A stretch of DNA of 35,909 nucleotides, taken from contig JAERSX010000320.1 of NCBI GenBank assembly GCA_016845285.1, forward strand, positions 1 to 35,909. The letters run 5' to 3'. This document shows, piece after piece, positions 6,908 to 35,909 of the stretch. Both the position numbers and the translations under genes were made by a program. The notes beneath the pieces were generated by a model that did not search any database, was not told the origin of the DNA, and saw only the letters and a list, made by a program, of their open reading frames with translations. Source of the DNA: Deltaproteobacteria bacterium (GTDB lineage: Bacteria; Myxococcota_A; UBA796; UBA2385). Each line of letters begins with the position of its first letter. Position 1 is the stretch's first letter.

Positions 6908-6965
6908 CGGAGCGCCACGGCACCGAGAACACACCACTCATGCTGCCCAACGGAGGACCTCTGCA

Positions 6966-7856: not shown

Positions 7857-7873
7857 TGCCGACAGGCCGTTCG

Positions 7874-7912: not shown

Positions 7913-7942
7913 TCGCCAATTGGGGAGAGAGAGGACCCCGCC

Positions 7943-9430: not shown

Positions 9431-9442
9431 GGTCGAACCTTG

Positions 9443-9522
9443 GCGGCGCCACCCGAATGGTCTCCCGAGATCTGCTGGTGCTGCGTGACGAGTAGGTCAC
9501 GAGGAGCCTCGAGTGGCGCCGC
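9443..9522 (-). promoter_or_regulatory. Structured intergenic element (nested inverted repeats) between two minus-strand lipoprotein genes
   Basis: A perfect 10-bp inverted repeat, GCGGCGCCAC (9443-9452) / GTGGCGCCGC (9513-9522), encloses a CGTGAC-gagtag-GTCACG hairpin (9484-9501). The element sits directly after the stop at 9531 and directly before the start at 9430. Confidence 0.35.
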
Positions 9523-13671: not shown

Positions 13672-13680
13672 GCCGCCGCC

Positions 13681-14733: not shown

Positions 14734-14827
14734 GACCGCCTCCGTCCCGGCCTTATAGAACCTGCGAACCGACTTGTCTACTCATGGGTAGGCATTTGGC
14801 TCCCGAGCAGACGTTAGACCGGCCCCG

Positions 14828-15409
14828 ATGGGCACCAAGCGAACCTCTCCCGAAGCCATCCTGGACGCCGCGGAGCACGCCTTCGGGACCGACGGCTACA
14901 CCGGTGCCCGACTGGCCGACATCTCCGCTGCCGTGGGCATTCGCAGGCCGAGCCTGCTCTACCACTTCAAGACCAAGGACGCGCTCTACAACGCGGTGGT
15001 CCTGCGCCTCTTCGAGTCTCTGAGAGAGACCTTCACCGAAGCCTTCGAGGCAGGTGGCAGCTTCGAAGACCGCATGCTGCGACTGATGAGCGCCTACCTC
15101 GCCTTCCTCGACGAGCGCCCCGCCTTCGCGCCCCTCGTCATCCGGGAGATCCTCGACGGCCACGGCCCTGGTCGACACCTCCTCGAGACCCGGCTCGTGC
15201 CCTTGCTCGACCTCATCGAGCAGTGGCTGGCGCAGGCGGGAGGCGGCGAGATCCCCGAAGGCGTCCAGATTCGAAGCGCCATCATGCATCTCGGCAGCAA
15301 CGCGATCCTCCACGCTGCAGCAGGGCCACTGCAGGGGCCGTTGTGGGGCTCCGATGGGGGCACCCTGGACCTGGCCCGGCGGCTCTTGCTCGCGGAGGAC
15401 CGTGCGTGA
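14828..15409 (+). CDS. TetR/AcrR family transcriptional regulator
   Basis: The N-terminal helix-turn-helix reads ILDAAEHAFGTDGYTGARLADISAAVGIRRPSLLYHFKTKDALY. The 193-aa size is typical of the family. Confidence 0.9.
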   Translation: MGTKRTSPEAILDAAEHAFGTDGYTGARLADISAAVGIRRPSLLYHFKTKDALYNAVVLRLFESLRETFTEAFEAGGSFEDRMLRLMSAYLAFLDERPAFAPLVIREILDGHGPGRHLLETRLVPLLDLIEQWLAQAGGGEIPEGVQIRSAIMHLGSNAILHAAAGPLQGPLWGSDGGTLDLARRLLLAEDRA

Positions 15410-15461
15410 CCCGGAGGGCTGTAGCCCCCCTGAGAGGCCGGCCCCGTGATAGCTCCGGTGC

Positions 15462-19381: not shown

Positions 19382-19399
19382 GCCCGGGGCACCCTGTGC

Positions 19400-19822
19400 T
19401 CAGTACCACATGGGCAGGTGGAGCTCTGCGCCATCGGCGGGGACCTGCACCGAGCAGTTCGACCACCGGGGGACCATCAAGGGCTTCTTCGTACACGAAG
19501 CAGCGGTGCCCTCAGAGGGTCCGGGTGGCAGGAAGGCGAAGTCGAGCTCGCCATCTGCGTCGTGGTCATGGTGGATGGTGAAGCCGTAGCGACCCGGGGC
19601 CAGGTCGCTCACGCGCATCTCGATGGTCGCGCTGCTCGCGGGCACTGTCAGGCTGCGCACCTCCTCTCCCCAGTGCGGGTAGGTCTCCTCAGCGTCGAAG
19701 ACGCGCAGCACCAAGGGCGCGCCATCGGTCTGGACGCCGTCGAGCCGGATGACCACATCACCAGCTCGGGCCGCCGAGAGCGCCGAGAACGCGGAGAGCG
19801 CCGAGAGCAGCATCAGTGACAT
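19400..19822 (-). CDS. Secreted DUF2141-like protein
   Basis: Only the last 140 aa of track ORF 19400..20671 are plausible. ATG 19822 is preceded by GGGAG. The signal is MSLMLLSALSAFSALSAARA. The segment LAPGRYGFTIHHDHDADGELDF..PPGPSEGTAAS resembles the DUF2141 core. The rest of that track ORF is antisense to meaB. Confidence 0.6.
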   Translation of the reverse strand: MSLMLLSALSAFSALSAARAGDVVIRLDGVQTDGAPLVLRVFDAEETYPHWGEEVRSLTVPASSATIEMRVSDLAPGRYGFTIHHDHDADGELDFAFLPPGPSEGTAASCTKKPLMVPRWSNCSVQVPADGAELHLPMWY

Positions 19823-19990
19823 GGGGGCTCCCAGGGACTCCAGGTGCTGTGCTCCTGGCCCACCACACCCTCCAGGTCCCCCAGGATGCCACGCATCCCA
19901 GGCAAGCTCCGCGACGATCTGTACCGAGATCCGCGCAGAGCTTCGACACCTGGCGCTGAGCCGCGCGCCGTTCCAGGCTAAGCCTCCGAC

Positions 19991-20992
19991 ATGCCCCGGC
20001 GCCCCACCCTCTCCACCCAGGACCTCATCACCGGCGTGCGCGCCGGAGACCGCGCCATCCTGGGCCGCGCCATCAGCCTGGTCGAGTCCACCCACCCGGC
20101 CCATCGCGTCCAGGCCACGGCACTGCTCGACGCCCTGATGCCCCACACCGGTGGCGCCCAGCGCATCGGCCTGACCGGCGTGCCCGGCGCCGGCAAGAGC
20201 ACGCTCATCGACACCCTGGGCACCCGGCTGACCGCCGCTGGCCATCGGGTCGCCGTCATCGCCGTCGACCCCTCCAGCAGCCGCACCGGCGGCAGCATCT
20301 TGGGCGACAAGACCCGGATGCAGCGCCTGGGCGTAGACCCCATGGCCTTCATCCGCCCCTCTCCGGCGGCCGGCACGCTGGGCGGGGTGGCCCGCCGAAC
20401 CCGCGAGACCCTGCTGCTCTGCGAGGCCGCAGGCTTCGATGTGGTGCTCGTGGAGACGGTCGGCGTGGGCCAGAGCGAGACCGTCGTCGCAGACATGACC
20501 GACATCTTCGTGGTCTTGCTCATCGCCGGTGCCGGCGACGAGCTCCAGGGCATCAAGCGGGGGCTCATGGAGCGGGCCGACGTGCTCGTGGTGCACAAGT
20601 GCGACGGCGACAACATCGACGCCGCCCAGCGCGCCGCACACGAGCTTCGTCAGGCCGTGCGACTGCTGCACCCCGCGAGTGCGCCGTGGGTGCCGCCCGT
20701 GCTCACGGCCAGCGCCCTCGCCGACACCGGCCTGTCAGAGCTCTGGCAGACCATCGCCCGCTTCGGCGAGGAGGCCCGCGCCCGTGGCGAGCACGACACC
20801 CGTCGCACCGCCCAGCGCGCGCGCTGGATGTGGGATCTCGTCGAAGACGAGCTCATGAGGCGGCTCCGCTCCGATCCCACGGTGGCCTCCCGCCTGCCTC
20901 ACCTCGAAGAGGCCGTGGCCAGCGGCGTCCTCGCCCCCACCCACGCCGCCGAACAGCTGATCGCCGCCTTCCTGGCTGACCGCCAGGACTGA
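19991..20992 (+). CDS. meaB: Methylmalonyl-CoA mutase-associated G3E GTPase (MeaB/ArgK)
   Basis: P-loop GVPGAGKST; DPSSSRTGGSILGDKTRM; VETVGVGQSE. The G4 position reads HKCD instead of the usual NKxD. Confidence 0.9.
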   Translation: MPRRPTLSTQDLITGVRAGDRAILGRAISLVESTHPAHRVQATALLDALMPHTGGAQRIGLTGVPGAGKSTLIDTLGTRLTAAGHRVAVIAVDPSSSRTGGSILGDKTRMQRLGVDPMAFIRPSPAAGTLGGVARRTRETLLLCEAAGFDVVLVETVGVGQSETVVADMTDIFVVLLIAGAGDELQGIKRGLMERADVLVVHKCDGDNIDAAQRAAHELRQAVRLLHPASAPWVPPVLTASALADTGLSELWQTIARFGEEARARGEHDTRRTAQRARWMWDLVEDELMRRLRSDPTVASRLPHLEEAVASGVLAPTHAAEQLIAAFLADRQD

Positions 20993-21027: not shown

Positions 21028-22215
21028 CTACTCGGTGGTCAGGGTGGTCACCGAGAGGCTGAGGTCGAAGCCGAGATCGGAGCTCGTGGACGTAGCCTGG
21101 TGGACCTCGACAGCGATGATGTTGCTGCCGTCCTTGAAGAGCGAGACGTCGACGTCGAAGCTCTCGTAGTCGTACTCGTCTTCGCTGCTGATGGCATCGA
21201 CCGCGTAGTCGTCGTAGGCGATGTCGCCGTCGGCGAGGTTGTCCCGAATGGCTTCCTCGCCGTTGATCCAGACGATGGCGGCGTCGTCGACCATGAGCTG
21301 GATCTCCGCCTGGGAGGGTGTGCCCGACACCGTGGTCCACTTGCGGAAGTAGGTGGTGGGGTTCTTGTCAGAGGAGTTCGAGCCGTAGGACACCGTCGTG
21401 GTCTCACGAGAGTCGCCGTAGCCCAGGGGCGCCGCGCCTTCCGACCAGGCGCTGTGGTCGTAGTCGGCCTCGCGCCACTCGGTGCCAAGGTCCACCCCCA
21501 GGTCGTTGTACATCCACGGCGAGCCCGCCTCGAGGACCTCCACCACCTCGATGGAGACGATGGCGTTGGAGCTGCCGGGGGTCCCCACCGGCATCTGCGC
21601 CCACTCGTCGGCGCCGTCGCTCACCCGGGCATGCGCCTCGTCACCGGAGAGCTGCGGGTAGACCACCCAGTCCACCGGCGTGCCGTCGTTCATGAAGAGC
21701 CCCACGCCCTCGCCGCTCGCACTGAGCCGGAAGGCGAGCTCGTCGTCGCTCAGCTCGTCGGCATCGGTGGCGTAGAGCAGCAGGTGCCCGCCCGCTTCGA
21801 GGATCAGGCCATCCGGCAGCACGTGCTTGTTCTTGTCGTCGTAGTCGTCCGACATCCACATGCCACCCAGGTCCACCGCCTCGTCACCGGTGTTGTGCAG
21901 CTCGAGCCAGTCCGGCTCGGGGAGGCTCGCGTGCTCCAGAGACCCCTCGTTGGCGGGCATGAGCTCGTTGATGACCACCGACGGTGGCTCGGGTGGCTCA
22001 CCGGAGTCTCCGTCGCCGCCAGTACCCGAGTCGCCGCCGGTGCCCGAGTCGTCGCCGGTGCCCGAGTCGTCGCCGGTGCCGTCACCTGCGCCAGAGTCAT
22101 CGCCGGAGCCTGACCCATCACCAGAGCCTGCACCGCCTCCCGTGGCGGCACCGGAGTCGGTGCCCCCCGCGGGTTGCGTTGGGGAACAGGCCAAGACGAA
22201 CAAGAGGAACAGCAC
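21028..22215 (-). CDS. Lipoprotein with a lamin-tail domain (LTD) and a C-terminal beta-sandwich domain of the type found in CotH/LTD proteins
   Basis: GTG start with MLFLLFVLACS, then a (D/G)SG(T/A)G-rich linker. The LTD reads VINELMPAN...DWLELHNTGDEAVDLGGMWMSDD. The C-terminal part reads SPWMYNDLG..W..ADYDHSAW..GYGD..TTYFRKW..VWINGEE..IIAVEVHQ. Confidence 0.75.
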   Translation of the reverse strand: MLFLLFVLACSPTQPAGGTDSGAATGGGAGSGDGSGSGDDSGAGDGTGDDSGTGDDSGTGGDSGTGGDGDSGEPPEPPSVVINELMPANEGSLEHASLPEPDWLELHNTGDEAVDLGGMWMSDDYDDKNKHVLPDGLILEAGGHLLLYATDADELSDDELAFRLSASGEGVGLFMNDGTPVDWVVYPQLSGDEAHARVSDGADEWAQMPVGTPGSSNAIVSIEVVEVLEAGSPWMYNDLGVDLGTEWREADYDHSAWSEGAAPLGYGDSRETTTVSYGSNSSDKNPTTYFRKWTTVSGTPSQAEIQLMVDDAAIVWINGEEAIRDNLADGDIAYDDYAVDAISSEDEYDYESFDVDVSLFKDGSNIIAVEVHQATSTSSDLGFDLSLSVTTLTTE

Positions 22216-22256
22216 GAATCACCACCGGGTCGCGTTCGGGATTCTAAGATGCCTCC

Positions 22257-24371
22257 ATGCGCAGCCCATGGGCCACCCTCCCGATCGTCTCGCTCATCAT
22301 GGTCGCCTCGGCGGCCTGCCGGGGGGGAACGCCACCGACAACCACGACTCCACCCCCCGGAGACACAGCCGCGCCAGACGACTCGGGCGGTGGTGACGAC
22401 GGGGGAGACGAGGGCGGCGGCGACGACAGCGCCGAGCCCGAGGTGTACGAAGACCTCGTGATCAACGAGCTCATGGCGGGCAACCGCTTCGCCGTGGCCG
22501 ACCCGCTGGGGGGCAGCGCAGACTGGCTGGAGATCTTCAACCCGGGCGACGAGGACGTGGACCTCGACGGCTGGGGTCTGCTCGTAGACGGCGCCGACGA
22601 TCCCTATCTGCTGGAAGATCTGACCGTCGGGGCCGGGGCGCATGTGGTGATCTGGGCCGACGACGCATCGGGTCTGGGCCCCGACCACACCGACTTCACC
22701 CTCGAGCTCGCCGGCGGTGAGCTGAGCCTGCTCGCTCCAGACGAGACCGTGAAGGACACGGTGAGCTGGCCGGTCCAGGCCACTGACATCTCCGCAGCCC
22801 GCGCCCCGGACGGCGCGGCGCACTGGTCGCTCACGGCCAGCCCCACACCCGGCAGCGCCAACGCCGAGGGCGACGGCCGTGAAGGAGGCACCTCAGACGG
22901 CACCTGCGCCCTGGACTCCGATCTCGACGATCCCTACTTCTGGGAGGGTGAGTCCATCGAATTCGGCCTGAGCTGCACCGCCGACCTCTCGGAGGAGGAG
23001 GTGGAGCTGGAGGTGGTGCTCGCCCCAGACAGCTCAGCCTTCGCCGACCAGCGCTTCACCATGGAGAGTGGCCCCAGCGACGGCGGCCGGGTCGACGTGA
23101 TCTTCAGCGCGCGCCCCGCCGACGCCCTGGACCAGATCCCCGAGGCCGCCACCGTCACCTTCTGGCTGGCCGACAACCCCGACCTGACCGACGCCGTCGA
23201 CCCCGTCCCCACCGAGTACACCGAGGAGTGGGGCCTGCCGGTCATCCACATCGAGACCGGAGTCGACTTCTCCCAGACCTATGTCGACGCCACCATCACC
23301 CACATGGGCACGGCCTACGACGCCGAGGTCAAGGTGCGCGGCGCGTCGAGCGTGAGCTACCCCAAGCAGAGCTACACCCTGGACTTCGACGACGAGGAGC
23401 TCAAGATCGAGGGCTGGGACAGCCGCGAGCACATCGTGCTGACCAGCACCTTCGACGACAACAGCTACGTGCGCCAGAAGCTCGTCTTCGACATGTGGCA
23501 GGCCATGGCCGAGTACTGGGGCACGCTGCGTCTGACCCCTCGCACCTTCTTCGCGGTCGTCTACCTCGAGGGCGCGTACCACGGCCTGTACATCGCCACC
23601 GACCATGTGGACGAGGAGTTCGCCGTGGCCCTGGGCTTCGACTCGGGGGGCAACCTCTACAAGTCCGTCAGCCACGACGCCAACTTCTACAACACCGACG
23701 CCAACGGCTACGTCAAGAGCAGCTGGCACGACGGCTACGAGAAGAAGGAAGGCGATGATCTCGATGACTTCGACGACCTCGACGAGTGGGTCGAGTGGGT
23801 CGCAACCAACGATGCCGAGACCATCGTCGACGAGGCGGGCCGCCGCTTCTCGTTGACCGAGTTCATGGACTGGTTCCTGCTCGTCCACTTCACCGAGTGC
23901 CAGGACTCCGCCGGCAAGAACGCCTACTTCTACAACGTGGACGAGGGCGCCCCCGCCTTCCGTCTGACCCCCTGGGACTTCAACGCCGCCTTCGGCCAGA
24001 ACTGGTACACGCGCCGCGTCGACTCCGACTACCTGCAGACCTACGAGTGGCACAACCGGATCTTCTGGGCCATCGCCAACGTGGAGTCGGCCGACACCGA
24101 GCGCTGGGAGCGCTACGCCGCCATGCGCACCGACGGGCCGCTGAGTCCCGAGTGGCTGAAGGGCACCATCGACGCCTACTACGACGACATCCACCCTTCG
24201 GCCGAGCGCGACTGGGCGAAGTGGGGCGACCAGTACTACAGCTTCAGCCGCTGGGCGAGCACGCGCAACAGCGACGCCGACTGGACCGACTACGAGGGCG
24301 AGCGGGCCTATCTGGACACCTGGATCGACGAGCGGATCACCCTGTTCGATGAGGATCACCCTCTTGAATAG
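22257..24371 (+). CDS. Exported LTD-CotH fusion protein (CotH atypical kinase family)
   Basis: Lipoprotein signal MRSPWATLPIVSLIMVASAAC. The LTD reads VINELMAGN..DWLEIFNPGDEDVDLDGW. The CotH-like core reads VKVRGASSVSYPKQSYTLDF, YVRQKLVFDMW, GLYIATDHVDEEF, GNLYK, AGKNAYFY and TPWDFNAAFGQNW. Confidence 0.8.
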   Translation: MRSPWATLPIVSLIMVASAACRGGTPPTTTTPPPGDTAAPDDSGGGDDGGDEGGGDDSAEPEVYEDLVINELMAGNRFAVADPLGGSADWLEIFNPGDEDVDLDGWGLLVDGADDPYLLEDLTVGAGAHVVIWADDASGLGPDHTDFTLELAGGELSLLAPDETVKDTVSWPVQATDISAARAPDGAAHWSLTASPTPGSANAEGDGREGGTSDGTCALDSDLDDPYFWEGESIEFGLSCTADLSEEEVELEVVLAPDSSAFADQRFTMESGPSDGGRVDVIFSARPADALDQIPEAATVTFWLADNPDLTDAVDPVPTEYTEEWGLPVIHIETGVDFSQTYVDATITHMGTAYDAEVKVRGASSVSYPKQSYTLDFDDEELKIEGWDSREHIVLTSTFDDNSYVRQKLVFDMWQAMAEYWGTLRLTPRTFFAVVYLEGAYHGLYIATDHVDEEFAVALGFDSGGNLYKSVSHDANFYNTDANGYVKSSWHDGYEKKEGDDLDDFDDLDEWVEWVATNDAETIVDEAGRRFSLTEFMDWFLLVHFTECQDSAGKNAYFYNVDEGAPAFRLTPWDFNAAFGQNWYTRRVDSDYLQTYEWHNRIFWAIANVESADTERWERYAAMRTDGPLSPEWLKGTIDAYYDDIHPSAERDWAKWGDQYYSFSRWASTRNSDADWTDYEGERAYLDTWIDERITLFDEDHPLE

Positions 24372-26088
24372 CGCACCCTCGACACTGCTCGCGCTCCTGC
24401 TGATCGCCTGCAGCGGCACGTCAGAGGACCGGCCCGGTGCGGGTCCCGGGGACGCAGGCGACGGTGGCAACGAGGGGGGCGACACCGATCCCGGGGACAC
24501 CGACGAGGGGGGCGACGGCTACGACACAGGCCCCATCGAGCAGGTGCCCGGTGGCGACGGCGAGGTGATCTTCGAGCCCGACGGTGGTGGCTTCCTCTAC
24601 GAGGTGGACGTGAGCCTGCGCTCCTCGACGGGCACAGGCGAGCTCTGGTACTGCCTCGCGCCTCCCACCGAGGACGACTGCAGCTTCCGCGAGTACGACG
24701 AGCCCTTCGAGCTGGACGAGTCCATGGTCGTGCACGCGCAGCTCCGCATCGGAGGCGCAGCCGACGAGACCGTGGCCCGCGCCTTCTTCGAGGTGGACGA
24801 CGAGCTCGCGGACTGGGACACCAACGTTCCCCTCATGGTGCTCTGGAGCGACGACGACAAGCCGTCCAGCACCTCCGATCGGGTGCCCTTCGCTGTCACG
24901 GTGATCGATGCTGACGGCGGGCGCATCGGCCTGACCGACGAGCCCGAGAGCAGCGGCCGTGGGCGCATCCGCCTCCGTGGCTCGTCTTCATCGAGCTTCA
25001 GCAAGCCCAGCTACGACCTCGAGCTCTGGGCCGCAGACTCCGACGATGACCGCCCCGAAGAGATGCTCGGGATGCCCAAGGACGGCGACTGGGTGCTCTA
25101 CGGCCCGTACTACTACGACGACGGACTCATCCGGAACGCCCTGGCCTACCAGCTCAGCAACGACGTGGGTCGCTACGCCTCGCGCACCCGCTTCGTGGAG
25201 GTCTTCCTCGCCGAGGATGGCCGGTCCGTTCGCGAGCGGAACTACATGGGCGTCTACACCCTCGTCGAAGAGATCGAGCGCGGGGCCGATCGGGTGGACG
25301 TGACCGAGCTCACCCCGGACGACGTGGACCAGCCAGAGCTCACCGGCGGCTACGTCTTCAAGCGCGACCGCCCCGACGACGACGACAGCAGCCTGAGCTG
25401 CGGCTCGGCAGGCGGCGCCATCTACTTCGAGTACGGCCTGCAGGCCGTCGACCCCGAGGAGCACGAGCTCGTCGACGTCCAGCTGTCCTATGTGGACGGC
25501 TTGTGCGATGCCCTGGGCTACGCGACGGTCTCCGACGACTTCACCGACCCCGCCAGCGGCCTGCACTACACCGACATCATCGACGTCGACTCCTTCATCG
25601 ATCACCACATCATCAACGTGATCATGAAGAACCCCGACTCCTTCCGGCTGAGCGGCTACCTCCACAAAGACCGCGACGGCCTCATCCAGGCCGGCCCCGT
25701 CTGGGACTTCGACCGGGCCTCGGCCTCGGCCGACTACCGCAGCAGCTACCCCACCTGGTGGGACGCTTGGAACCAGACCTCGGACTGCACCCCCGTCTTC
25801 GAGTACGGCTGGTACGAAGGGCTGTTCAACGATCCCGAGTTCTCGGACGCCTACTGGACCCGCTTCGAGGAGCTCCTCGACGGACCGCTGAGCGCCGAGG
25901 CCATCGACGCCCACATCGTGGACATGGCGGACCAGCTCGACGAGGCGGCCGACCGCAACGCCGACACCTGGAGCTCGCGCAACTTCGACGACGAGACCGC
26001 GCTGATCCGCGACTGGATGCAGACCCGGGTCGCCTGGATCGGCGACTGCATCGCCACCTACGAGAACCCTCAGAGCTGCCCTGGCTGA
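24349..26088 (+). CDS. Exported CotH family protein (second paralogue)
   Basis: The ATG overlaps the previous gene by 23 nt. The signal is MRITLLNSAPSTLLALLLIACSG. The CotH-like core reads RIRLRGSSSSSFSKPSYDLEL, LIRNALAYQL, MGVYTLVEEIER, GGYVFKRD, IINVIMKNPDSFRLSGYLHKD and GPVWDFDRA. Confidence 0.8.
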   Translation: MRITLLNSAPSTLLALLLIACSGTSEDRPGAGPGDAGDGGNEGGDTDPGDTDEGGDGYDTGPIEQVPGGDGEVIFEPDGGGFLYEVDVSLRSSTGTGELWYCLAPPTEDDCSFREYDEPFELDESMVVHAQLRIGGAADETVARAFFEVDDELADWDTNVPLMVLWSDDDKPSSTSDRVPFAVTVIDADGGRIGLTDEPESSGRGRIRLRGSSSSSFSKPSYDLELWAADSDDDRPEEMLGMPKDGDWVLYGPYYYDDGLIRNALAYQLSNDVGRYASRTRFVEVFLAEDGRSVRERNYMGVYTLVEEIERGADRVDVTELTPDDVDQPELTGGYVFKRDRPDDDDSSLSCGSAGGAIYFEYGLQAVDPEEHELVDVQLSYVDGLCDALGYATVSDDFTDPASGLHYTDIIDVDSFIDHHIINVIMKNPDSFRLSGYLHKDRDGLIQAGPVWDFDRASASADYRSSYPTWWDAWNQTSDCTPVFEYGWYEGLFNDPEFSDAYWTRFEELLDGPLSAEAIDAHIVDMADQLDEAADRNADTWSSRNFDDETALIRDWMQTRVAWIGDCIATYENPQSCPG

Positions 26089-27302
26089 GGGCGCAGGCCT
26101 TCGCGGCGACGACGCGCCAGGAAGACCGGCAGCAGCCACCACAGGCTCGCCGCACCGCTGTTGCAGCCGCAGCCGCCCGGATCTGCCGGCGTGAGGGCGC
26201 CACCGCCGCTGTCGCCATCCGCGGTGCCGGTCCCGCCGTCGTCACCGGTGCCGCTCCCGCCGTCGTCCCCCGGCCCCGAGTCCCCGCTGTCGCCCGCCGG
26301 CGACGTGTCCTCGCTGGTGTCGGTCCCGCCCGTGTCGATGGGACCCCAGTCCACCTCGGCCGCGCAGCCCTCGAACTCTTCGCTCTCGACGCAGGGCACC
26401 TCCGCGATGAGCATGGGCACACCCTCGGTGGTGGTGAGCAGGCCGCCCTCGTGTCGATAGGCGATGGACTCGCCCTGGCCCTGCTCGTGGAGCATCACGC
26501 GGGTGGGAATCTCCCCCCAGTGAGCGTCGGGATCGTCGGGATCGGTGACCCACTCCCAGCCGCTGTCGTAGTTCCGTGCGATGAAGCGATCGCCCGCCGG
26601 CGACCAGTCCGCGCCCGTGAACGCACCCGGAGACGGCCACTCACCCACCGCCAGCTCGGTGAGCACCTCCACCTCTGCGGTCGCGTCGAGGCCCGTGGGC
26701 TCGAGGGGGGCACGGGCCACCCGCGGGGCGTCCTCCGACTCCATCCGCTCCTTGGTGACCAGGTAGATCTGCCCGGTGCAGGGATGCACCGCCACCGCCT
26801 CGGTGTCGCGCGGCGACTCGGGCCAGGTCAGCCTCCAGGTCGCCAACACCGGCGCGTCCTCACCCTCACCGGGCTCGGCGACCACGTAGATCTGCACCTC
26901 TTCGCGGGTACGGGCGTTGTCTCCTACGTCTGCGATGTAGAGGCAGTGCTCGGCATCGGATCCCTCGGGGCAGGGCCCATAGGACAGGTCCTCCCAGTCC
27001 TGGAATTCGGCGTCGGTGACCACGTGGGTATCGACGTGTTCGCCGCTGAGGTCGAAGGCATGGAGCACGGCGACGCCGCCTGCATCGTTGTGGCTGAACC
27101 AGATGCCACGCCGGGTCCGCGACCACGCGATGCCGCTGCTCTCGTTGATCTCCTCGGCCATGCACTCGCTGACCAGGGCCGCGGCGTCGTAGGAAGTGCA
27201 GGTGGTCGCCTCGCTGGGAGCACTCCAAGCAAGCGATCCCAAGACCGCCAGCACGGTCCTCGGCACCCTAGGGCCCGCATCTTTCCTCGACCACACGGGC
27301 AT
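26070..27302 (-). CDS. Secreted propeller-like protein with a MYXO-CTERM-like C-terminal sorting tail
   Basis: GGAAG lies upstream of ATG 27302, and a signal peptide is present. The N-terminal domain is paralogous to the product of 27461..28324 (ESSGIAWS..WFSHNDAGG, DWEDL, LYIADVGDN). An acidic Gly/Ser/Asp linker follows, then GGCGCNSGAASLWWLLPVFLARRRRE. Confidence 0.75.
   Translation of the reverse strand: MPVWSRKDAGPRVPRTVLAVLGSLAWSAPSEATTCTSYDAAALVSECMAEEINESSGIAWSRTRRGIWFSHNDAGGVAVLHAFDLSGEHVDTHVVTDAEFQDWEDLSYGPCPEGSDAEHCLYIADVGDNARTREEVQIYVVAEPGEGEDAPVLATWRLTWPESPRDTEAVAVHPCTGQIYLVTKERMESEDAPRVARAPLEPTGLDATAEVEVLTELAVGEWPSPGAFTGADWSPAGDRFIARNYDSGWEWVTDPDDPDAHWGEIPTRVMLHEQGQGESIAYRHEGGLLTTTEGVPMLIAEVPCVESEEFEGCAAEVDWGPIDTGGTDTSEDTSPAGDSGDSGPGDDGGSGTGDDGGTGTADGDSGGGALTPADPGGCGCNSGAASLWWLLPVFLARRRREGLRPQPGQL
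26073..26177 (-). other. MYXO-CTERM-like sorting signal
   Basis: A GGCGC motif, a hydrophobic helix LWWLLPVFLA and a basic cluster RRRR at the C-terminus match my recollection of TIGR03901. Confidence 0.55.
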
Positions 27303-27460
27303 TCACTTCCCACGTCACCTGACGGCCATCTTACCGCCACTGCCCCGCCAGTGATGTAAAGTAGCGGCTGATGGTTCTCAGACCCCCTTTCCGGCAACGT
27401 ACCGGTCATCGACGTCTACGTCGTCGGCCCGCGTCGACGACCGCAGCCCTGGAGGATGAC

Positions 27461-28324
27461 GTGGGTCACGGTCTCCTCGGTGCGTTGATGCTCGGACTTG
27501 CCGCCTGCGGCGACGACTCGGGGGAGTGCGAGAACTGGGGTGAGCCGGTCTCCACGGGCACCTTGGCCAGCGCGGAGATCTCCGAGGCGAGCGGGCTGGT
27601 GGCCAGTCGGATCCATGACGACCTCTTCTGGACCCACAACGACGCCGGCGACGGCGCACGGCTCTTCGCCCTCGACAGCAGCGGCGCCCACGAAGGCACC
27701 GTCGACTTCTCCGACGAGGACGCCAAGGACTGGGAGGACATCGCAGCCGGAGTGGGTGCCGACGGCAACCCCTGGCTCTACATCGGCGACATCGGCGACA
27801 ACGACCTGAGCCGCGACGAGATCCGTGTGTGGCGCACCGCCGAGCCCTCCGACCCGAAAGATGACGGCATCGAGCTGGACAAGCTCGACCTGAGCTACCC
27901 GGACGGCCCTCACGACGCCGAGACCCTGCTCTTCGATCCGCGAGACAACACCCTGTACGTGATCACCAAGTCCGACGGCGATCAGGCAGAGGTCTACGCC
28001 GTCGACGCGCATGCCGAGGACGATCAGGAGCTCGAGCACGTGGCCAGCATCGACCTGGTGGCGCGTGGACTTGCCGACGATGCGGCGCTCACGGGCGGTG
28101 ACATCTCGGCGGCCGGCGACTGGATCCTGCTGCGCACGCAAGGCCAGGTCTTCGCCTGGGCACGCGCTGCGGGAAGCACCCTGGCCGAGACCCTCGACCT
28201 CGAACCCTGCCTGGCACCCACGCCCACCCAGGACAATGGCGAGTCACTTGCCATGGACGGCGATAGCTACTTCACCGTCGGCGAAGGCACTGGTGCCCCG
28301 GTCTGGCAAGCGAGTCCTCCATGA
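27461..28324 (+). CDS. Lipoprotein, propeller-like; paralogue of the 26070..27302 product; first gene of the VTC operon
   Basis: I chose GTG 27461 because GGAGG (27451-27455) lies 5 nt upstream. It gives VGHGLLGALMLGLAACG, which contains a lipobox. Motifs read: EASGLVAS..LFWTHNDAGDG, DWEDIA and LYIGDIGDN. Confidence 0.7.
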   Translation: MGHGLLGALMLGLAACGDDSGECENWGEPVSTGTLASAEISEASGLVASRIHDDLFWTHNDAGDGARLFALDSSGAHEGTVDFSDEDAKDWEDIAAGVGADGNPWLYIGDIGDNDLSRDEIRVWRTAEPSDPKDDGIELDKLDLSYPDGPHDAETLLFDPRDNTLYVITKSDGDQAEVYAVDAHAEDDQELEHVASIDLVARGLADDAALTGGDISAAGDWILLRTQGQVFAWARAAGSTLAETLDLEPCLAPTPTQDNGESLAMDGDSYFTVGEGTGAPVWQASPP

Positions 28325-29343
28325 GCAAGCTGAAGGCAGGCCGAGCCATCGCAGGTGCGCTCGCGCTCATGGGCCTCGTGGCCATGGGGCTCAGCTCCAT
28401 GTCGGCCTCGGTGGTCACCGGCCCCGGCGTGGTCGACGCCACCACCACCTGGAAGGTTCGCGTCACCGGCGACGGGCGCTACCGCTGGACGCTGGAGGAA
28501 GGCCGCACCCCCCAGGGTCACGCCGTCGTGTCCGAGGGCGTCATGCAGTCCGAGCGCGGCGACCCCATGGTGCTCACCCTCGAAGCGGGCGTGGCTCCCG
28601 GTGCCACCATCGCCCAGAATCAGCCGCTGGCCCGCCTCCACTCCACCACCGCCCACGAACAGCTCCAAGCCCTCGAGGCCGAGCGCGCCCTCCTCCTCGC
28701 AGAGCAGGAGCTCCTGGCGGCTGGCGGCCGCCCCGAGGTGGTACGGGCAGCCGAGCAGGCCGTGGCTGTCGCCGAAGGCCGCCTCGAGATCGCCGAAGCC
28801 CAGGCCGAGCACATCTCCACCCTGGCCGACGACGGCGCGTCCTCCCGCTACGAAGCCGAGGAGGCCACGCGCCTTGCCTCGGTGGCCGACGCGGAGCTCG
28901 CCCTTGCGCAAGCCAAGCTCGACGAAGCCCGTCGTCCCGCCATGAGCGCCGAGTCCGAGGCCCTCGTCGCCCGCGTCAACGCCGTCGATGCGCGCCTGAC
29001 AGCAGCCCGGGCACGCGCCGAGCAGCAGGTGCTCGCTGCACCCTTCGCCGGCGAGCTGTCCATGCCTGGCGGCGACATCGCCCTTCAGGTCCACGCCGCT
29101 GGGCCCCGGCTCCTGCGCGTGGCCGTCGCCGAGTCCGAGCGTCGCCACGTGTCCCCCGGCAACATGGTCTCCTTCATCCCCACCGCCAACCCCGACAACC
29201 TCCACCAGGGCAAGGTGCTCGCCGTCGACAGCGCCGCGCGCTCCTTCGGCGGACAGACGGTCGTGTGGGTGGTGGCCGAGCTCGACGACTCCCTTCCCGT
29301 CGGGGCCACTGGCTCCGCAGCCGTCTCCAGGACGAAGGGATGA
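28321..29343 (+). CDS. HlyD-family membrane-fusion / periplasmic adaptor protein
   Basis: The ATG overlaps the upstream stop (ATGA). There is an N-terminal TM anchor AIAGALALMGLVAMGL, an Ala/Glu/Leu-rich coiled-coil region of about 130 aa, and flanking beta-barrel-like segments (VLAAPFAGEL, GNMVSF). Confidence 0.7.
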   Translation: MSKLKAGRAIAGALALMGLVAMGLSSMSASVVTGPGVVDATTTWKVRVTGDGRYRWTLEEGRTPQGHAVVSEGVMQSERGDPMVLTLEAGVAPGATIAQNQPLARLHSTTAHEQLQALEAERALLLAEQELLAAGGRPEVVRAAEQAVAVAEGRLEIAEAQAEHISTLADDGASSRYEAEEATRLASVADAELALAQAKLDEARRPAMSAESEALVARVNAVDARLTAARARAEQQVLAAPFAGELSMPGGDIALQVHAAGPRLLRVAVAESERRHVSPGNMVSFIPTANPDNLHQGKVLAVDSAARSFGGQTVVWVVAELDDSLPVGATGSAAVSRTKG

Positions 29344-30161
29344 GCGGAGAGGGGCGGCGAGAGCTCAAGTACATCATCCACGAGGACCAGCGTGCCAAGG
29401 TCCTCGACATCGCGCGGAACGCCGTCTCCGCCGACGAGCACGCAGGCGTGCTCACCGACTACATCTCCGATGGCTTCCGCGGCCCGGACGGCGAGCTCGC
29501 CAAGGGCTACCGCGTCAACACCCTCTACATCGACACCCCGGACCTGCGGACCTACACGCAGCGGCTGCGGAGCGCCCACATCCGCAACGTCGTTCGCATC
29601 CGCACCTACGGCGAGCCGGGCGACGTCACCCCGGTCTTCATCGAGTCCAAGCGAAAGCTCCGCGACCGCGTGGTCAAGCACCGCGCGCTCGTCTGCAATG
29701 CGCAGGAGTGGGCGGCCGCCGACGCCGCACACCCGTGGGAGACCATCCTCCCGCCCCTCGAGGGCGCCTTGGGCCGAAAGGCGCAGCGCTGGCTCGCTCA
29801 CACGCGCCGCGACAAGCTCGACACCGTGTTGACCGTGCACTACGTCCGCGAGGTCTACACCGAGGGGCGCTCGCGCCTCACCATCGATCACCTCGTGAGC
29901 GCCACAGGAAAGCAGGATCCCACCTTCCTGCAAGGACCCGGCCTCACCCGCCTCATTCCCCAAGGCTTCCTCGTGCTCGAGCTCAAATTCGACATCCGCA
30001 AGCCCGCTTGGATGAGAGACATCTGCAGCGAGCTGAACCTCGTCGAGGAGCCCGTCTCCAAGTACGGCCTCGGCGTGGCTCACACCGTGCGGACCGATCG
30101 TGTGGGTGAGCGCAAGTACATCACCCCGCCCACCTTGACCCGTGCGGGGCGCGCCGCGTGA
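29340..30161 (+). CDS. VTC-domain / triphosphate-tunnel (TTM) polyphosphate-polymerase-like protein
   Basis: ATG 29340 overlaps the upstream stop (ATGA). The tunnel-strand motifs appear in order: RELKYII, VNTLYIDTP, VVRIRTY, VFIESKRK, RLTIDHLV, LVLELKF and SKYGLG. The upstream 443 aa of track ORF 28011..30161 are an Arg/Pro-rich out-of-frame artefact. Confidence 0.75.
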   Translation: MSGEGRRELKYIIHEDQRAKVLDIARNAVSADEHAGVLTDYISDGFRGPDGELAKGYRVNTLYIDTPDLRTYTQRLRSAHIRNVVRIRTYGEPGDVTPVFIESKRKLRDRVVKHRALVCNAQEWAAADAAHPWETILPPLEGALGRKAQRWLAHTRRDKLDTVLTVHYVREVYTEGRSRLTIDHLVSATGKQDPTFLQGPGLTRLIPQGFLVLELKFDIRKPAWMRDICSELNLVEEPVSKYGLGVAHTVRTDRVGERKYITPPTLTRAGRAA

Positions 30162-30841
30162 CGCCCTTCGAGGCCGAACAGCTCCTGCTCGACACCTCCA
30201 CCCTCGGCCTCGACGCCGTGGTGCAGTCGCTGCTGTTGAGCTTCATCCTGGGGCTCGTCGTGGCGGCGGTCTATCGGTGGTCGCTGCCCGAGCGCATCGT
30301 GCCGCCGCAGCTCATGGCCTCGCTGGCGCTCCTGCCCATGATCACCGCACTCGTGATGATGGTCATCGGCAACAGCCTCGCGCGGGCCTTCTCGCTCGTG
30401 GGCGCGCTGGCCATCGTTCGCTTCCGCACCCGCCTCCGCAGCACCTGGGACATCTCCTTCGTGTTCTTCGCGCTGGCCGTGGGCATCGGCTGCGGCGTGG
30501 GTGCCCTCGAGAACACCGCGCTCGGCACCCTGGTCATCGTGCTGGCCGTCGTGGTGCTCGGCGCGCTGCCGTTCACGCGCGCCGCCTCGGATGTACAGAC
30601 CCTGCGCTGCGACGTCGCCGCCTACGAGCTCGGCGAGGGCGCGCTGGCGCCGCTCATCGACAAATACGCCCGGCGGCGCTGGCTCACCACCGCGCAGTCC
30701 CAGCGCTTCGGCGAGGCCATGACGCTCACGTACCGCATCGTGCTGAAACGAAAGGCCCGTTTGGAGCCCCTGGTTCGCGAGCTCTCGGCCCTCGAAGGTG
30801 TGGAACGGGTCACGCTCATGAGCGAAGAGGGCAGCACTTAG
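30158..30841 (+). CDS. DUF4956-family integral membrane protein
   Basis: GTG overlaps the upstream stop (GTGA). Several TM segments are present, along with the signature GNSLARAFSLVGALAIVRFRTRLRSTWDISFVFFALAVGIGCG and a soluble C-terminal domain. Confidence 0.7.
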   Translation: MTPFEAEQLLLDTSTLGLDAVVQSLLLSFILGLVVAAVYRWSLPERIVPPQLMASLALLPMITALVMMVIGNSLARAFSLVGALAIVRFRTRLRSTWDISFVFFALAVGIGCGVGALENTALGTLVIVLAVVVLGALPFTRAASDVQTLRCDVAAYELGEGALAPLIDKYARRRWLTTAQSQRFGEAMTLTYRIVLKRKARLEPLVRELSALEGVERVTLMSEEGST

Positions 30842-30870: not shown

Positions 30871-31542
30871 ATGATGCGCCCCACGCTGATGGCCCCCATG
30901 TACTTGCTGTTTCCACTCACGCTGTTGGCCTGTGGCGACAAGGCGGGAGGCTTCGACTCTGGCGCTACCGTCACCGAGGACTGCACCGACGGTGTGGACA
31001 ACGACGGCAACGGTGCCGCCGACTGCGCCGACGCCGCTTGCGCCGACGATCCGGCCTGTGCCGAGGACGACGACGACGAGGGCGGCGACTCTGGGGGCAC
31101 GGGTGGCAACACCGACTACCCCGACGTGCTCGTCAACGAGTTCATGGCGAGCAACGCCACCACCCTCCAAGACGTGACCGGCGCCTGGCCCGACTGGATC
31201 GAGCTCTACAACGCATCTGACGAGACCGTCGACCTCGCGGGCTGGTTCATCACCGACAACCTGGACAACCAGGACAAGAGCGAGCTCCCCAGCTTCGTGC
31301 TCGAGCCCGGTGAGTTCCTCATCCTGTACGCCGACGACGACCAGGAAGACGGAGAAGACCACGTCAACTTCAGCCTCGACGCCGCTGGCGAGCAGATCGG
31401 CATCTACGGCCCCGACGGCTCCATGGTCGACGAGATCGAGTACGGCGAGCAGGCCACCGACGTGAGCATGGGCCGGGTGCCCGACGGCAGCAGCACCTGG
31501 GAGGTGCTCGACAGCGCCTCACCCGGCTCCAGCAACGAGTGA
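30871..31542 (+). CDS. Lipoprotein with a Cys-rich DGVDNDGNG motif and a lamin-tail domain
   Basis: I chose the internal ATG 30871 (or 30874) of track ORF 30142..31542, which follows GGAGAGAG. The signal is MMRPTLMAPMYLLFPLTLLACG. The LTD reads LVNEFMASN..WPDWIELYNASDETVDLAGWFITDN. Confidence 0.75.
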   Translation: MMRPTLMAPMYLLFPLTLLACGDKAGGFDSGATVTEDCTDGVDNDGNGAADCADAACADDPACAEDDDDEGGDSGGTGGNTDYPDVLVNEFMASNATTLQDVTGAWPDWIELYNASDETVDLAGWFITDNLDNQDKSELPSFVLEPGEFLILYADDDQEDGEDHVNFSLDAAGEQIGIYGPDGSMVDEIEYGEQATDVSMGRVPDGSSTWEVLDSASPGSSNE

Positions 31543-33019: not shown

Positions 33020-35035
33020 CTACCAGCTGTCCCCGCCGGAACCGCCGTAGGCTCCGATGTCGGCGGTCGTGCCGTCAGCGTCCAGCAGCGCGGGATCTCC
33101 GGCATCGATGGAGGGCGACACCGAGTGCAGACGGAGGTCCCAGGCGGCGGGGTCGGCGCTGCTGATGTCGGTGTAGACCGGGTCCTGGGCCAGGTTGCCG
33201 TCGGTGCCCACGGGGTCGTCCATGCCGCTCCAGGTGTCTGCGCCCTGGGCTGGCACGTTGGTGTAGGTCCAGCTCAGCGCGTCGAGCTCGGTCACGAGCA
33301 CCGCGCTGCCCGCGCCCTCCCCTCCACTGCTCGAGACACTGTTGTCGACGATGTTGAGGTGGGAGACGGTGGCGGTGCCTGGCTGCTTGTCCATGGAGCC
33401 CACGAAGAGTCCACCGCCGTGGGCGTCGGCCTCGCCCGTGGAGATGACCGCGTTGCCCACGACGTCTCCGAAGTGCAGATCGAGCGGCTGGGAGAAGGTC
33501 CAGGCGTCGATGCCACCACCGCGGGCCGAGTCGAGCACGGCCTCGGCGGTGTTGCCCGCAGCGATGACCTGCTGGAGCGCGGGCGCGGAGTCCACCGGGT
33601 TGATGTGGACGCCCCCGCCGCGCGCGCCCCTGTAGCCGTAGATGTCGTTGCCGCGCAGGTCCACGTGCTCGAGCGCGGCGCCCTCGGTCAGGTACAGCCC
33701 CCCGCCAAAGGCGTAGCCGCTGTGGGAGGGGAGGGTCACCTCGGCGCGAAGGGTGTTGGCGTGGGCCGTGAGGTGGGTGACCGTGGCGCCCGGATCGTCG
33801 ACGTGCGCCGTGCCGTAGACGTAGCTGGCGGTCTGCGAGGTGGTGGTCAGGTCGTTGTCGCTGAGATCCAGCGCAGCCCAGGTGCTCTCGAGCTCGGTCT
33901 CGGACCAGCCCACCAGCGAGAGCACCCCGTACGAAGTGGCCGACTCGGGGGAGCTGAGGCTCACGCTGCAGCCCGTCACGCTCAGCCCGCTGACCGTGGC
34001 GGCGGCGCCGGACACGCGGGCGAACCACCCTTGCTGCTGCGCCGACTCGGTGCAGGCCAGACCGAGGTGGCTGTCGGTCATCGACAGGTCGCTGCCCGTC
34101 AGCGCGCCACCGTCGAGGAACAGCACGCCTCCCGTCGCGTAGCAGGAGCTGGGCTCGCCGACGCTGCTGACATCGAATTCACTCACCTCGAGACCCATGA
34201 GGTCGAGATCCGACTCGGTGGAGTAGATCAAGCCCCCTTCCGTGCCGAGGGAGCCTTCGGCTGAGCCCTGCTCGTAGGTGATCGTCACGTCCGAGACGGA
34301 GATCTCCACCAGCGACAAGGTCGCTGAGCTGGCACGCACGAGCAGGCCCCGGAGGTCGCCCCCGTCGCGGAGCACCGCGCTGTGCCCGGTGAACACCAGG
34401 TCTTCGAGATGTGCCTCGCTCCCGGCCAGCCTCAGCAGGCCCCCTTCGATGGGGTCTCCCTGGGTCACCTCGGCTCGATCGATGCCGGTCACCGTGAACC
34501 CTCGGAGCGTCAGGGCCCCGACCTGTGAGTCATCGACCACCCCCTCGTCGTCCAGGTTGTCCACGGTGAGCAGGGGCAGCTCGCCGGCCAGGTCGAGGGT
34601 GGTCTCGGCCGGGCCCGCACGGCCCGTGATCGTCAGGGTCCGGCCAGTCAGGTCGAGGCGCTCGGCGTAGGTGCCCGGCTCCACACAGATCTCGGAGCCC
34701 TGTCCGACAGCGTCGACGGCATCCTGCAGCGTGGCGTAGGTGGAGGGCACGGTGTGCCGGTCGATGCTGCCGTCGCAGTCATTGTCCACGCCGTCGCAGC
34801 CGACCTCGTCCGCATCTGGGTGCACGGCGGGGTCGGTGTCGTCGCAGTCGGTCTCCTGGTCGAAGCCGTCGCCGTCGGCATCGAGCGGCCCCGCGGTACC
34901 GCCCGTGTCGTCCGCTGAGGCCGTGTCAGCGGTGTCCGATGGCTCCGGGGACTCTGGGACGGCGCCCCCTCCACCCTGCTCCTTGTCCCCGCAGGCCACG
35001 AGGGCGAGGCAGAACAACAGGGGTCTCGGGCGCAC
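33020..35035 (-). CDS. Lipoprotein with a Cys-rich putative metal-binding motif and a right-handed parallel beta-helix-like body
   Basis: GTG 35035 with GAGGAGGA upstream, and the signal MRPRPLLFCLALVACG. The Cys-rich motif reads DCDDTDPAVHPDADEVGCDGVDNDCDG. A long Gly/Ser/Thr/Asp-rich repetitive region has recurring GGG(L/I/V) turns. Confidence 0.7.
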   Translation of the reverse strand: MRPRPLLFCLALVACGDKEQGGGGAVPESPEPSDTADTASADDTGGTAGPLDADGDGFDQETDCDDTDPAVHPDADEVGCDGVDNDCDGSIDRHTVPSTYATLQDAVDAVGQGSEICVEPGTYAERLDLTGRTLTITGRAGPAETTLDLAGELPLLTVDNLDDEGVVDDSQVGALTLRGFTVTGIDRAEVTQGDPIEGGLLRLAGSEAHLEDLVFTGHSAVLRDGGDLRGLLVRASSATLSLVEISVSDVTITYEQGSAEGSLGTEGGLIYSTESDLDLMGLEVSEFDVSSVGEPSSCYATGGVLFLDGGALTGSDLSMTDSHLGLACTESAQQQGWFARVSGAAATVSGLSVTGCSVSLSSPESATSYGVLSLVGWSETELESTWAALDLSDNDLTTTSQTASYVYGTAHVDDPGATVTHLTAHANTLRAEVTLPSHSGYAFGGGLYLTEGAALEHVDLRGNDIYGYRGARGGGVHINPVDSAPALQQVIAAGNTAEAVLDSARGGGIDAWTFSQPLDLHFGDVVGNAVISTGEADAHGGGLFVGSMDKQPGTATVSHLNIVDNSVSSSGGEGAGSAVLVTELDALSWTYTNVPAQGADTWSGMDDPVGTDGNLAQDPVYTDISSADPAAWDLRLHSVSPSIDAGDPALLDADGTTADIGAYGGSGGDSW

Positions 35036-35117: not shown

Positions 35118-35909
35118 TCAGTCGGGGACGCGGTCCTGGTAGACCGCGGCTCGCTCCTCAAGCCACGCGTACAGATACTCTTTCTCTTCTTCGTAGTCGG
35201 TCCAGTCGTTGTACGAGTTGCGAGAACCCGCCCAGCCCGAGTAGCTGCGGTAGGCATCGCCCCAGCGATCCCAGTCCCGGGCCGCGGCCTCGTCGATCTC
35301 CTCGTAGTAGCCATCGACCTGGGCCAGCATCCATACCAACTCAAAGGGGCCGTCTGTGCGCATGGATCTGAAGCGATCCCAGAGAGCCTCTTCACTCGAA
35401 GACACGCCCTGGATGGCCTTGAAAACCCGATTTGTGCTCTCGTACTCGTTGATGTCGTCGACGTCGATGCGCAGGGTGTACCAGTTCTGCCCCCAGGCGT
35501 GGTTGAAGTCCCAGGGCACGTACCGCCACGTGTCTTCGCTTGGGTCATGGTACAGGTAGCTGTTCTTTCCGGCCGAGTCTTCGCTGAGCGAGTAGGAGAC
35601 CAGGAGGAACCAGTCCATCCACTCCTCGAGGCTGAAGTGGTCGCTCGCGTTGGCCACGAGCTGGGCATCCGAGCTTCCGCCCGTGAAGGCGACCAGCTCC
35701 TCCAGATCGCTGAAGTCGGTCGATGGCTCGCCTTCCTTCTTTTCGTAGCCCGACGAGAGCGAGCTCTTCGCGTTGCCCGAGGTATCGGTGAGGTAGAAGT
35801 TGGCGTTGTGGTTGACCGCCTTGTACAGGTTGCCCGAGCTGTCGAAGCCCATGTGACGGATGAACTCGTTGTCCGGGCGGTCCAGTCCGATGAACAGGCC
35901 GTTGTAGAC
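35118..35909 (-). CDS. CotH family protein (third paralogue); N-terminus lies beyond the right window edge
   Basis: The frame is open from 35909 (VYNGLFIGLDRPDNEFIRHMGFDSSGNLYK...) to TGA at 35118. Motifs read: AGKNSYLY and VPWDFNHAWGQNW. It aligns by eye with the C-terminal half of the 22257..24371 product. Confidence 0.8.
   Translation of the reverse strand, partial: VYNGLFIGLDRPDNEFIRHMGFDSSGNLYKAVNHNANFYLTDTSGNAKSSLSSGYEKKEGEPSTDFSDLEELVAFTGGSSDAQLVANASDHFSLEEWMDWFLLVSYSLSEDSAGKNSYLYHDPSEDTWRYVPWDFNHAWGQNWYTLRIDVDDINEYESTNRVFKAIQGVSSSEEALWDRFRSMRTDGPFELVWMLAQVDGYYEEIDEAAARDWDRWGDAYRSYSGWAGSRNSYNDWTDYEEEKEYLYAWLEERAAVYQDRVPD

Follow-up and report, generated by a model that had tools for sequence, protein, structure and literature searches.

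In the 35,909-nucleotide contig JAERSX010000320.1 of a Deltaproteobacteria bacterium (GenBank assembly GCA_016845285.1), hereafter called the window at its whole length, a core module of three translationally coupled genes encodes a predicted periplasmic adaptor, a VTC-type triphosphate tunnel enzyme and a DUF4956 inner-membrane protein. We put at roughly 0.5 the probability that this module couples the synthesis of polyphosphate to its export, with DUF4956 and the adaptor as the path and the periplasm or the cell surface as the destination. The export reading rests on homology and gene context, and the synthesis-plus-export interpretation as a whole is reasonable but unproven. The three genes lie in the window as follows.

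28321..29343, + strand: periplasmic adaptor (membrane-fusion protein of the MacA/EmrA/HlyD type), 340 aa, assigned from an orthologue profile
29340..30161, + strand: VTC-type triphosphate tunnel enzyme, soluble, 273 aa, putative polyphosphate polymerase, assigned from Pfam VTC
30158..30841, + strand: DUF4956 inner-membrane protein, 227 aa, putative conduit, assigned from Pfam DUF4956

The coupled genes and their products

The stop codon of the VTC gene (TGA) overlaps the start of the DUF4956 gene (GTG) as GTGA, the one overlap that had been described in the first-pass annotation of this DNA. That annotation had missed two others: the adaptor gene at 28321-29343 overlaps the VTC start as ATGA, and the start of the adaptor overlaps, again as ATGA, the stop of a lipoprotein gene at 27371-28324 (propB), so that there are three successive 4-base overlaps. 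The two-component synthase and channel proposed at first pass is partly supported, in that the pair is coupled and its enzyme is Vtc4-like, and is too narrow insofar as the conserved core comprises three genes.

The 273-aa protein matches Pfam VTC (PF09359) at E 4.7e-27 with 95.5 bits against a cut-off of 23, over model positions 2-233 of 235. The motifs by which it had initially been recognized are all present in the translation (ELKY at residues 8-11, RIRTY at 86-90, ESKRK at 102-106, TIDH at 181-184, LELKF at 213-217, and SKY at 240-242), and the boundaries then given for both genes are correct. The protein carries no hydrophobic segment (the top Kyte-Doolittle 19-residue mean is 0.84), in line with its earlier description as a tunnel protein devoid of transmembrane segments. 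When compared with the sequences of solved structures, a profile of the protein and ten relatives matched yeast Vtc4 at E 1.9e-7, and a profile of 98 relatives, with members down to 21% identity with the window protein, matched Vtc4 (3g3q) over the full length at E 2.2e-22; the catalytically inactive Vtc2 and Vtc3 were matched by the latter in the middle only. The predicted fold agrees, with Vtc4 (3g3q) as the top Foldseek match of the AlphaFold2 model (pLDDT 80, pTM 0.80) at E 2.4e-11 and a TM-score of 0.61, and with CYTH-group adenylate cyclases and triphosphatases weaker by five orders of magnitude (best E 1.1e-6).

We then compared the tunnel and catalytic residues of Vtc4 with those of the window protein using HMMER alignments. 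All twelve residues checked, which are reported to be the functional ones of Vtc4 (Hothorn et al., 2009), are identical in the window protein and are invariant or at least 90% conserved among the 98 relatives: K200 corresponds to K10, R264 to R86, R266 to R88, K281 to K104, K294 to K113, R296 to R115, Y359 to Y168, R361 to R170, R373 to R179, E426 to E214, S457 to S240, and K458 to K241. These alignments support the assignment of the 273-aa protein as a putative catalytic tunnel enzyme of the Vtc4 kind in which no checked residue is missing, as the first-pass annotation had surmised from motifs. One position differs consistently: in place of Thr198 of yeast Vtc4, all 98 bacterial VTC-domain proteins have a Glu, which is Glu8 here (window 29361-29363). 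The strand motif of classical tunnel enzymes has thus kept in the bacterial family an acidic residue more than in Vtc4, and Glu8 may form a second metal site like that of classical tunnel enzymes. The family is large and spans several phyla, with 10,541 cluster representatives at E 0.001 or better. A VTC-DUF4956 fusion would be longer than any of the best 150 family representatives; a concatenated 500-aa VTC-DUF4956 query returned four VTC matches and missed the known DUF4956 relatives, and is uninformative about fusions.

The 227-aa protein matches Pfam DUF4956 (PF16316) at E 4.8e-13 with 49.6 bits against a cut-off of 30.6, as do 36 of 36 diverse relatives, so that both genes belong to the families to which they had been provisionally assigned. 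It is the sole integral membrane protein of the operon. In its AlphaFold2 model (pLDDT 80), hydrophobic helices span residues 18-42, 50-70, 74-90, 96-114, and 117-136, and a C-terminal ACT-like domain, overlooked at first pass, occupies residues 146-221 with a beta-alpha-beta-beta-alpha-beta order. The mean loop charges of 87 non-redundant relatives are those expected of an N-out, C-in topology, by which the loop at 88-98 and the C-terminal domain are predicted to be cytoplasmic, on the same side as the enzyme. Conservation among these 87 members is concentrated in residues 71-113, with G71, A75, R76, G82, R88, F89, R90, D98, F103, G109, and G113 each kept in at least 95% of them. The basic IVRFRT loop, which had been called conserved, is found at residues 86-91; its R88, F89, and R90 are invariant among 36 very diverse members, and it is predicted to face the compartment of the enzyme.

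As to ancestry, a profile of diverse DUF4956 members aligned by hhalign with E. coli YhiD, of the MgtC family, at 95.5% probability (E 1.6e-8); a profile of close relatives gave a weak alignment (18% probability). Pfam MgtC matches 27 of the 36 diverse relatives weakly and does not match the window protein alone. Among solved structures, Foldseek matched the C-terminal domain of the model alone, to ACT and ferredoxin-like folds that include the C-terminal domain of MgtC (2lqj). Owing to the YhiD alignment, the weak Pfam MgtC matches and the 2lqj-like C-terminal domain, we regard DUF4956 as a probable divergent, distant relative of MgtC/YhiD, a relationship that is convincing only with the diverse profile. 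The RFR motif sits in a 10-residue insertion that is missing from YhiD. No Foldseek match of the DUF4956 model reached E 0.001, and chains of 7ytj, 8i6v, and 9umg were absent from its 50 best-ranked matches. The DUF4956 profile had no match among the sequences of solved structures, and the single protein gave there chance matches to bestrophin alone (E above 0.6). Homology of DUF4956 with the membrane domain of eukaryotic VTC was therefore rejected for lack of any Foldseek or sequence match, and the word 'analogue', chosen in the first-pass annotation for the split system, is apt.

The adaptor is less readily recognized. Single-sequence Pfam and solved-structure searches with the adaptor and with the propeller proteins of the window (propA and propB, described below) found nothing above thresholds, so that family profiles were needed for them. 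Alone, the adaptor matched NCBIfam HlyD (PRK03598) at E 4.4e-11, which is below the cut-off of that model. A profile of 29 adaptor orthologues matched MacA at E 5.5e-14, followed by EmrA at E 5e-8 and MexJ, and Pfam HlyD_3 matches 16 of the 29. One hydrophobic segment, at residues 6-32, would serve as an N-terminal membrane anchor. By its profile matches, the product of 28321-29343 belongs with the periplasmic adaptors of tripartite efflux systems.

Conservation of the module across lineages

We then performed a comparative analysis of gene order in two sets of loci. The first set, of 53 loci, was drawn partly from species-representative genomes and partly from contigs that an exact-protein look-up had returned; it consists mostly of Myxococcota-like metagenome-assembled genomes, together with Verrucomicrobiota, Kiritimatiellota, and Firmicutes. 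The second clade was obtained from a metagenome scan with an alignment of a distant VTC sub-clade, at ~25-30% identity to the window protein. Neighbouring genes in this clade carry type-9 secretion system (T9SS) tails, and the clade is probably Bacteroidota-like.

DUF4956 lies directly 3' of VTC in 53 of 53 first-set loci and in 65 of 66 testable second-clade loci. Because the order is kept to this extent, the adjacency of the two genes is not due to chance; the association assumed in the first-pass annotation is thus borne out, the two being almost never separated. Wherever the upstream DNA of a locus in the group L001-L042 is long enough, the adaptor lies directly 5' of VTC, and it does so in 56 of 60 second-clade loci.

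A different arrangement is seen in seven loci from Verrucomicrobiota and Kiritimatiellota (L043, L044, L046, and L048-L051), where overlapping genes encode VTC, DUF4956, an HlyD_3-type adaptor, and a TolC-like protein; the TolC-like gene (Pfam OEP) was found in cis in L043, L044, L046, L048, L049, and L051. These four-gene operons are flanked by unrelated housekeeping genes. A compact example is L049:7956-11591, with VTC, DUF4956, adaptor, and TolC-like genes in this order between flanks that encode seryl-tRNA synthetase and TilS. Since the adaptor of these loci barely matches the profile of the window adaptor (E 0.008), efflux parts were recruited to the VTC-DUF4956 pair more than once. This repeated recruitment is the strongest argument that DUF4956 would be the inner-membrane element of an export path.

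Accessory and flanking genes

The core genes of the window lie among genes for lipoproteins and secreted proteins, which are listed below by position.

21028..22218, - strand: lamin-tail-domain lipoprotein (Pfam LTD E 2.4e-15; VLAC lipobox)
22257..24371, + strand: lamin-tail-domain and CotH kinase lipoprotein (CotH E 1.7e-44; LTD E 1.7e-11; SAAC lipobox)
24349..26088, + strand: CotH-family kinase lipoprotein (Pfam CotH E 1.3e-47; LIAC lipobox)
26070..27302, - strand: propA, secreted paralogue of propB, divergently transcribed (motifs in common with propB; signal peptide)
27371..28324, + strand: propB, lipoprotein, first gene of the operon (LAAC lipobox; ATGA overlap with the adaptor start)
30871..31542, + strand: lamin-tail-domain lipoprotein, last gene of the operon, after DUF4956 (Pfam LTD E 1.2e-16; LLAC lipobox)
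33020..35035, - strand: lipoprotein with MopE-type metal-binding motif (Pfam Cu-binding_MopE E 1.5e-8; lipobox)
35118..35909, - strand: CotH-family kinase, truncated by the window end (Pfam CotH E 8.5e-26)

All accessory proteins of the window carry lipoboxes or signal peptides. The three lamin-tail-domain proteins, the three CotH proteins, and the MopE-motif protein begin with an N-terminal lipobox followed by an acidic linker rich in Gly, Asp, and Ser. With the CotH kinases anchored outside the cytoplasm, the source of their phosphoryl groups becomes a question. The propB protein probably belongs to the SdiA-regulated/phytase-like family of beta-propellers, and its true start probably lies near the LAAC lipobox; Pfam gave no match for the propA and propB proteins of the window themselves.

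Several of these genes travel with the module. Homologues of propB adjoin it in most first-set loci, orthologues of propA are present in L001 and L002, the lamin-tail-domain gene keeps the position of 30871..31542 in L001, L003, L135, and L137, and homologues of 33020..35035 occur close to it in many loci. Among 97 second-clade neighbours, Pfam matched CotH 13 times, secretion tails 9, SdiA-regulated 6, phytase-like 6, and lamin-tail 4; the accessory set is the one seen in the window. Neighbours of the CotH, lamin-tail-domain, and phytase-like kinds are found again and again in three clades.

Phosphate-related genes are also found nearby. An alkaline phosphatase (Pfam PF00245, ~645 aa) is encoded at L135:15475-17421 and at L137:11097-13025, among the CotH and lamin-tail-domain genes beside the module; L135 is a near-identical relative of the window. 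In L138, a sulfatase/phosphodiesterase-type gene holds the position of the L135 and L137 phosphatases. At L136:8949-10681 (CAZTOW010000018 of GCA_964615375.1), an adaptor-DUF4956 pair occurs with no VTC gene within 20 kb, in the order histidine kinase, PstC/A/B, PhoU, HEAT, HD, the adaptor-DUF4956 pair, PhoB-like regulator, PhoU_div, and PHO4. A normal adaptor-VTC-DUF4956 locus (L036) is found in this metagenome-assembled genome as well.

The Pfam scan found no PPK domain in any gene of the cluster. A search for regulatory sites gave no promoter-like site and one terminator-like site that did not exceed shuffled sequence, in DNA of ~68% G+C. A role in anti-phage defence was considered and rejected, as six cluster proteins had no PADLOC match. 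Directly upstream of the CotH and lamin-tail-domain cluster, an ordinary metabolic operon on the + strand (14792-20992) encodes a TetR regulator, the small and large subunits of methylmalonyl-CoA mutase, and the MeaB GTPase, and the same junction is found in L135. Further upstream are a multihaem c-type cytochrome of ~724 aa with weak MtrC/MtrF-domain similarity (10502-12676, + strand) and several open reading frames without a Pfam match (at 6732-9496 and 12487-14781). On the - strand at 1-6693, running beyond the window start, lies a very large hybrid synthase unrelated to the VTC module, with acyl-AMP ligase, carrier, ketosynthase, acyltransferase, carrier, and class-III aminotransferase domains.

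Proposed function, rival explanations and known systems

From the homology with Vtc4, we infer that the soluble VTC-type enzyme would polymerize polyphosphate from ATP in the cytoplasm. Gene context suggests that it would dock onto an oligomer of the MgtC-like DUF4956 protein, and that the nascent chain would cross the inner membrane during synthesis, with the RFR loop and the ACT-like domain facing the cytoplasm. The membrane-anchored MacA/EmrA-type adaptor would then bridge the periplasm to a TolC-like outer-membrane channel, which is encoded within the operon in Verrucomicrobiota and Kiritimatiellota and presumably elsewhere in the genome here; by analogy with E. coli TolC, such a factor may act in trans. 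The polymer would thus reach the periplasm or the surface, where CotH kinases, lamin-tail-domain proteins, and phytase-like propellers could use, bind, or remobilize it, and in relatives alkaline phosphatases could likewise act on it. In favour of this proposal are the likeness of the enzyme to Vtc4, the tight coupling of the three genes, the identity of the adaptor and the second recruitment of efflux parts, the predicted cytoplasmic placement of the RFR loop and the ACT-like domain, and neighbours that are extracytoplasmic and have a bearing on phosphate. What the analysis establishes are the identities of the proteins, the conservation of their residues, the linkage of the genes and a predicted topology; enzyme activity, docking and translocation follow from these by inference.

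A number of observations weigh against this proposal. The replacement of Thr198 by an invariant Glu8 means that metal use, and possibly the chemistry itself, may differ from that of Vtc4, and in the literature searched we found no bacterial VTC-domain protein with a demonstrated activity. Neither the window nor the loci L001-L042 contain a TolC-like gene. Confidence in the DUF4956 model is lowest exactly at the conserved residues 71-100. The Foldseek and profile searches found no solved structural relative of its membrane domain and no transporter match, and therefore nothing shows a pore. MgtC is a regulator that acts by binding to the F1Fo ATP synthase and to PhoR, and no MgtC-like protein is known to have a channel function. 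The adaptor-DUF4956 pair can also occur without VTC, as in L136, and deletion of the homologues in Streptococcus intermedius gave no clear phenotype (PMC12345266).

Conceivably, then, the polymer stays in the cytoplasm and DUF4956 is an MgtC-like anchor or sensor that modulates phosphate/ATP homeostasis, with its ACT-like domain binding a metabolite and with no translocation at all. We hold this to be possible, if on balance unlikely. It draws on the distant homology of DUF4956 with MgtC/YhiD, in which the same membrane-plus-ACT-like architecture is seen, on the cytoplasmic polymer proposed by the S. intermedius authors (preprint version of PMC12345266), and on the adaptor-DUF4956 pair of L136, whose place inside a Pho-regulon cluster also fits regulation. 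However, such a regulator leaves unexplained why, in two clades, the pair shows translational coupling to an efflux-type adaptor, why an unrelated adaptor and a TolC-like gene have joined the pair in Verrucomicrobiota and Kiritimatiellota, and why every accessory protein is extracytoplasmic. Moreover, because the invariant RFR insertion is missing from YhiD, DUF4956 should do something that MgtC does not.

Less weight still is given by us to another chemistry, with the tunnel enzyme as an NTPase, triphosphatase, or cyclase that would either power a new type of adaptor-dependent exporter of some other cargo, such as lipoproteins or polysaccharide, or make a signal by which that exporter is gated. 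The superfamily does include triphosphatases and class IV adenylate cyclases, which are among the weaker structural matches; Glu8 of the classical ExExK-type motif, which Vtc4 is without, has been kept; and in Gram-positives the genes accompany an exopolysaccharide (pel) operon. Yet in sequence and fold the enzyme is much nearer to Vtc4 than to any CYTH-type enzyme, all basic residues lining the Vtc4 tunnel are kept, and the neighbours have to do with phosphate (alkaline phosphatase, phytase-like propellers, the Pho cluster). No tunnel enzyme is known to drive a transporter. That VTC and DUF4956 are mere neighbours with no functional link has a negligible probability and is effectively refuted by the conserved synteny, since adjacency in 53 of 53 and 65 of 66 loci, with overlapping codons, extends across Myxococcota-like, T9SS-bearing, Verrucomicrobiota/Kiritimatiellota, and Firmicutes lineages.

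If polyphosphate is indeed made and exported by the module, it would constitute a third bacterial polyphosphate route and a source for extracellular and periplasmic polyphosphate. It would also give DUF4956 its first molecular function, provide a clue to the role of MgtC-like proteins, and explain why secreted CotH kinases often accompany VTC-DUF4956 genes, including in pathogens and gut commensals (e.g., Clostridium perfringens NELoc-2, streptococcal pel loci, and Bacteroides). More speculatively, and in our judgment quite unlikely, the module could be a trans-envelope polyphosphate secretion machine whose product is the phosphoryl donor, or a polyanionic substrate or scaffold, for the extracytoplasmic CotH kinases. 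In that event, phosphorylation of a protein or polymer at the surface would be powered, in a place devoid of ATP, by exported polyphosphate. The polymer would be recycled by alkaline phosphatases and phytase-like propellers, so that bacteria would have an equivalent of the store kept in eukaryotic acidocalcisomes or vacuoles, and in Gram-positives it would, being anionic, pair with the cationic polysaccharide Pel.

The pairing of VTC and DUF4956 is already in print (PMC7112168; PMC12345266). A trio of cotH, polyphosphate polymerase, and DUF4956 genes was described next to the pel operons of Gram-positives, to which it is accessory (Whitfield, 2020; PMC7112168), was noted in NELoc-2 of Clostridium perfringens (PMC2879425), and was described in S. 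intermedius as SIR_1592-1594, where the membrane protein was called MgtC-like with an ACT domain (PMC12345266). The literature searched contained no report of a function for the trio, of the adaptor link, or of the TolC link. Nor did we find in that literature the three-gene adaptor module, its TolC-linked form, the descent of the membrane subunit from MgtC-like proteins, or the spread outside pel loci. The last point is contrary to PMC12345266, in which the trio was reported as not found outside pel loci, whereas the loci collected here place it widely outside them. The pel trio and the window have in common the families of the secreted CotH kinase, the VTC-like enzyme, and the membrane protein with an ACT-like domain; the window differs in coming from a diderm, in lacking pel genes, and in having an adaptor gene inside the operon.

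The MgtC/SapB/YhiD proteins probably resemble DUF4956, by sequence and by the Foldseek match to 2lqj, in the membrane core and C-terminal ACT-like domain. Unlike DUF4956, MgtC is not coupled to a VTC enzyme and an adaptor, and YhiD has no RFR insertion. MgtC has been tied to phosphate homeostasis in literature cited in PMC12345266. MacAB-TolC and EmrAB-TolC have a membrane-anchored periplasmic adaptor that is homologous at profile level to that of the module and is likewise linked to an inner-membrane protein; linkage to a TolC-like gene is common only to the Verrucomicrobiota and Kiritimatiellota loci. Whereas the partner in such pumps is an ABC, MFS, or RND protein, here it would be DUF4956 with the tunnel enzyme, and what is exported would be a polymer synthesized in place.

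In bacteria, the synthesis of polyphosphate is ascribed to PPK1 and PPK2, the products of which remain cytoplasmic. The presumed product of the VTC enzyme is the same, but in fold and family these kinases are unrelated to it. VTC4 is still listed as a eukaryotic enzyme in papers as recent as 2026. The eukaryotic VTC complex itself (Vtc4 with Vtc1/2/3/5; PDB 3g3q, 7ytj, 8i6v) has the tunnel fold, the Pfam family, and the twelve residues in common with the window enzyme, and the proposed logic is alike, with polymerization at the cytoplasmic face and a chain threaded through a membrane partner. In the eukaryotic complex, however, the catalytic domain is fused to SPX and membrane domains, whereas the window enzyme is a single Pfam domain with no SPX and no fusion, and the membrane partner is a three-helix DUF202-type domain there and an MgtC-like five-helix protein with an ACT-like domain here. 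Because an efflux adaptor and sometimes a TolC-like gene are part of the bacterial module, its target would be the periplasm or the cell exterior, unlike the vacuole served by eukaryotic VTC.

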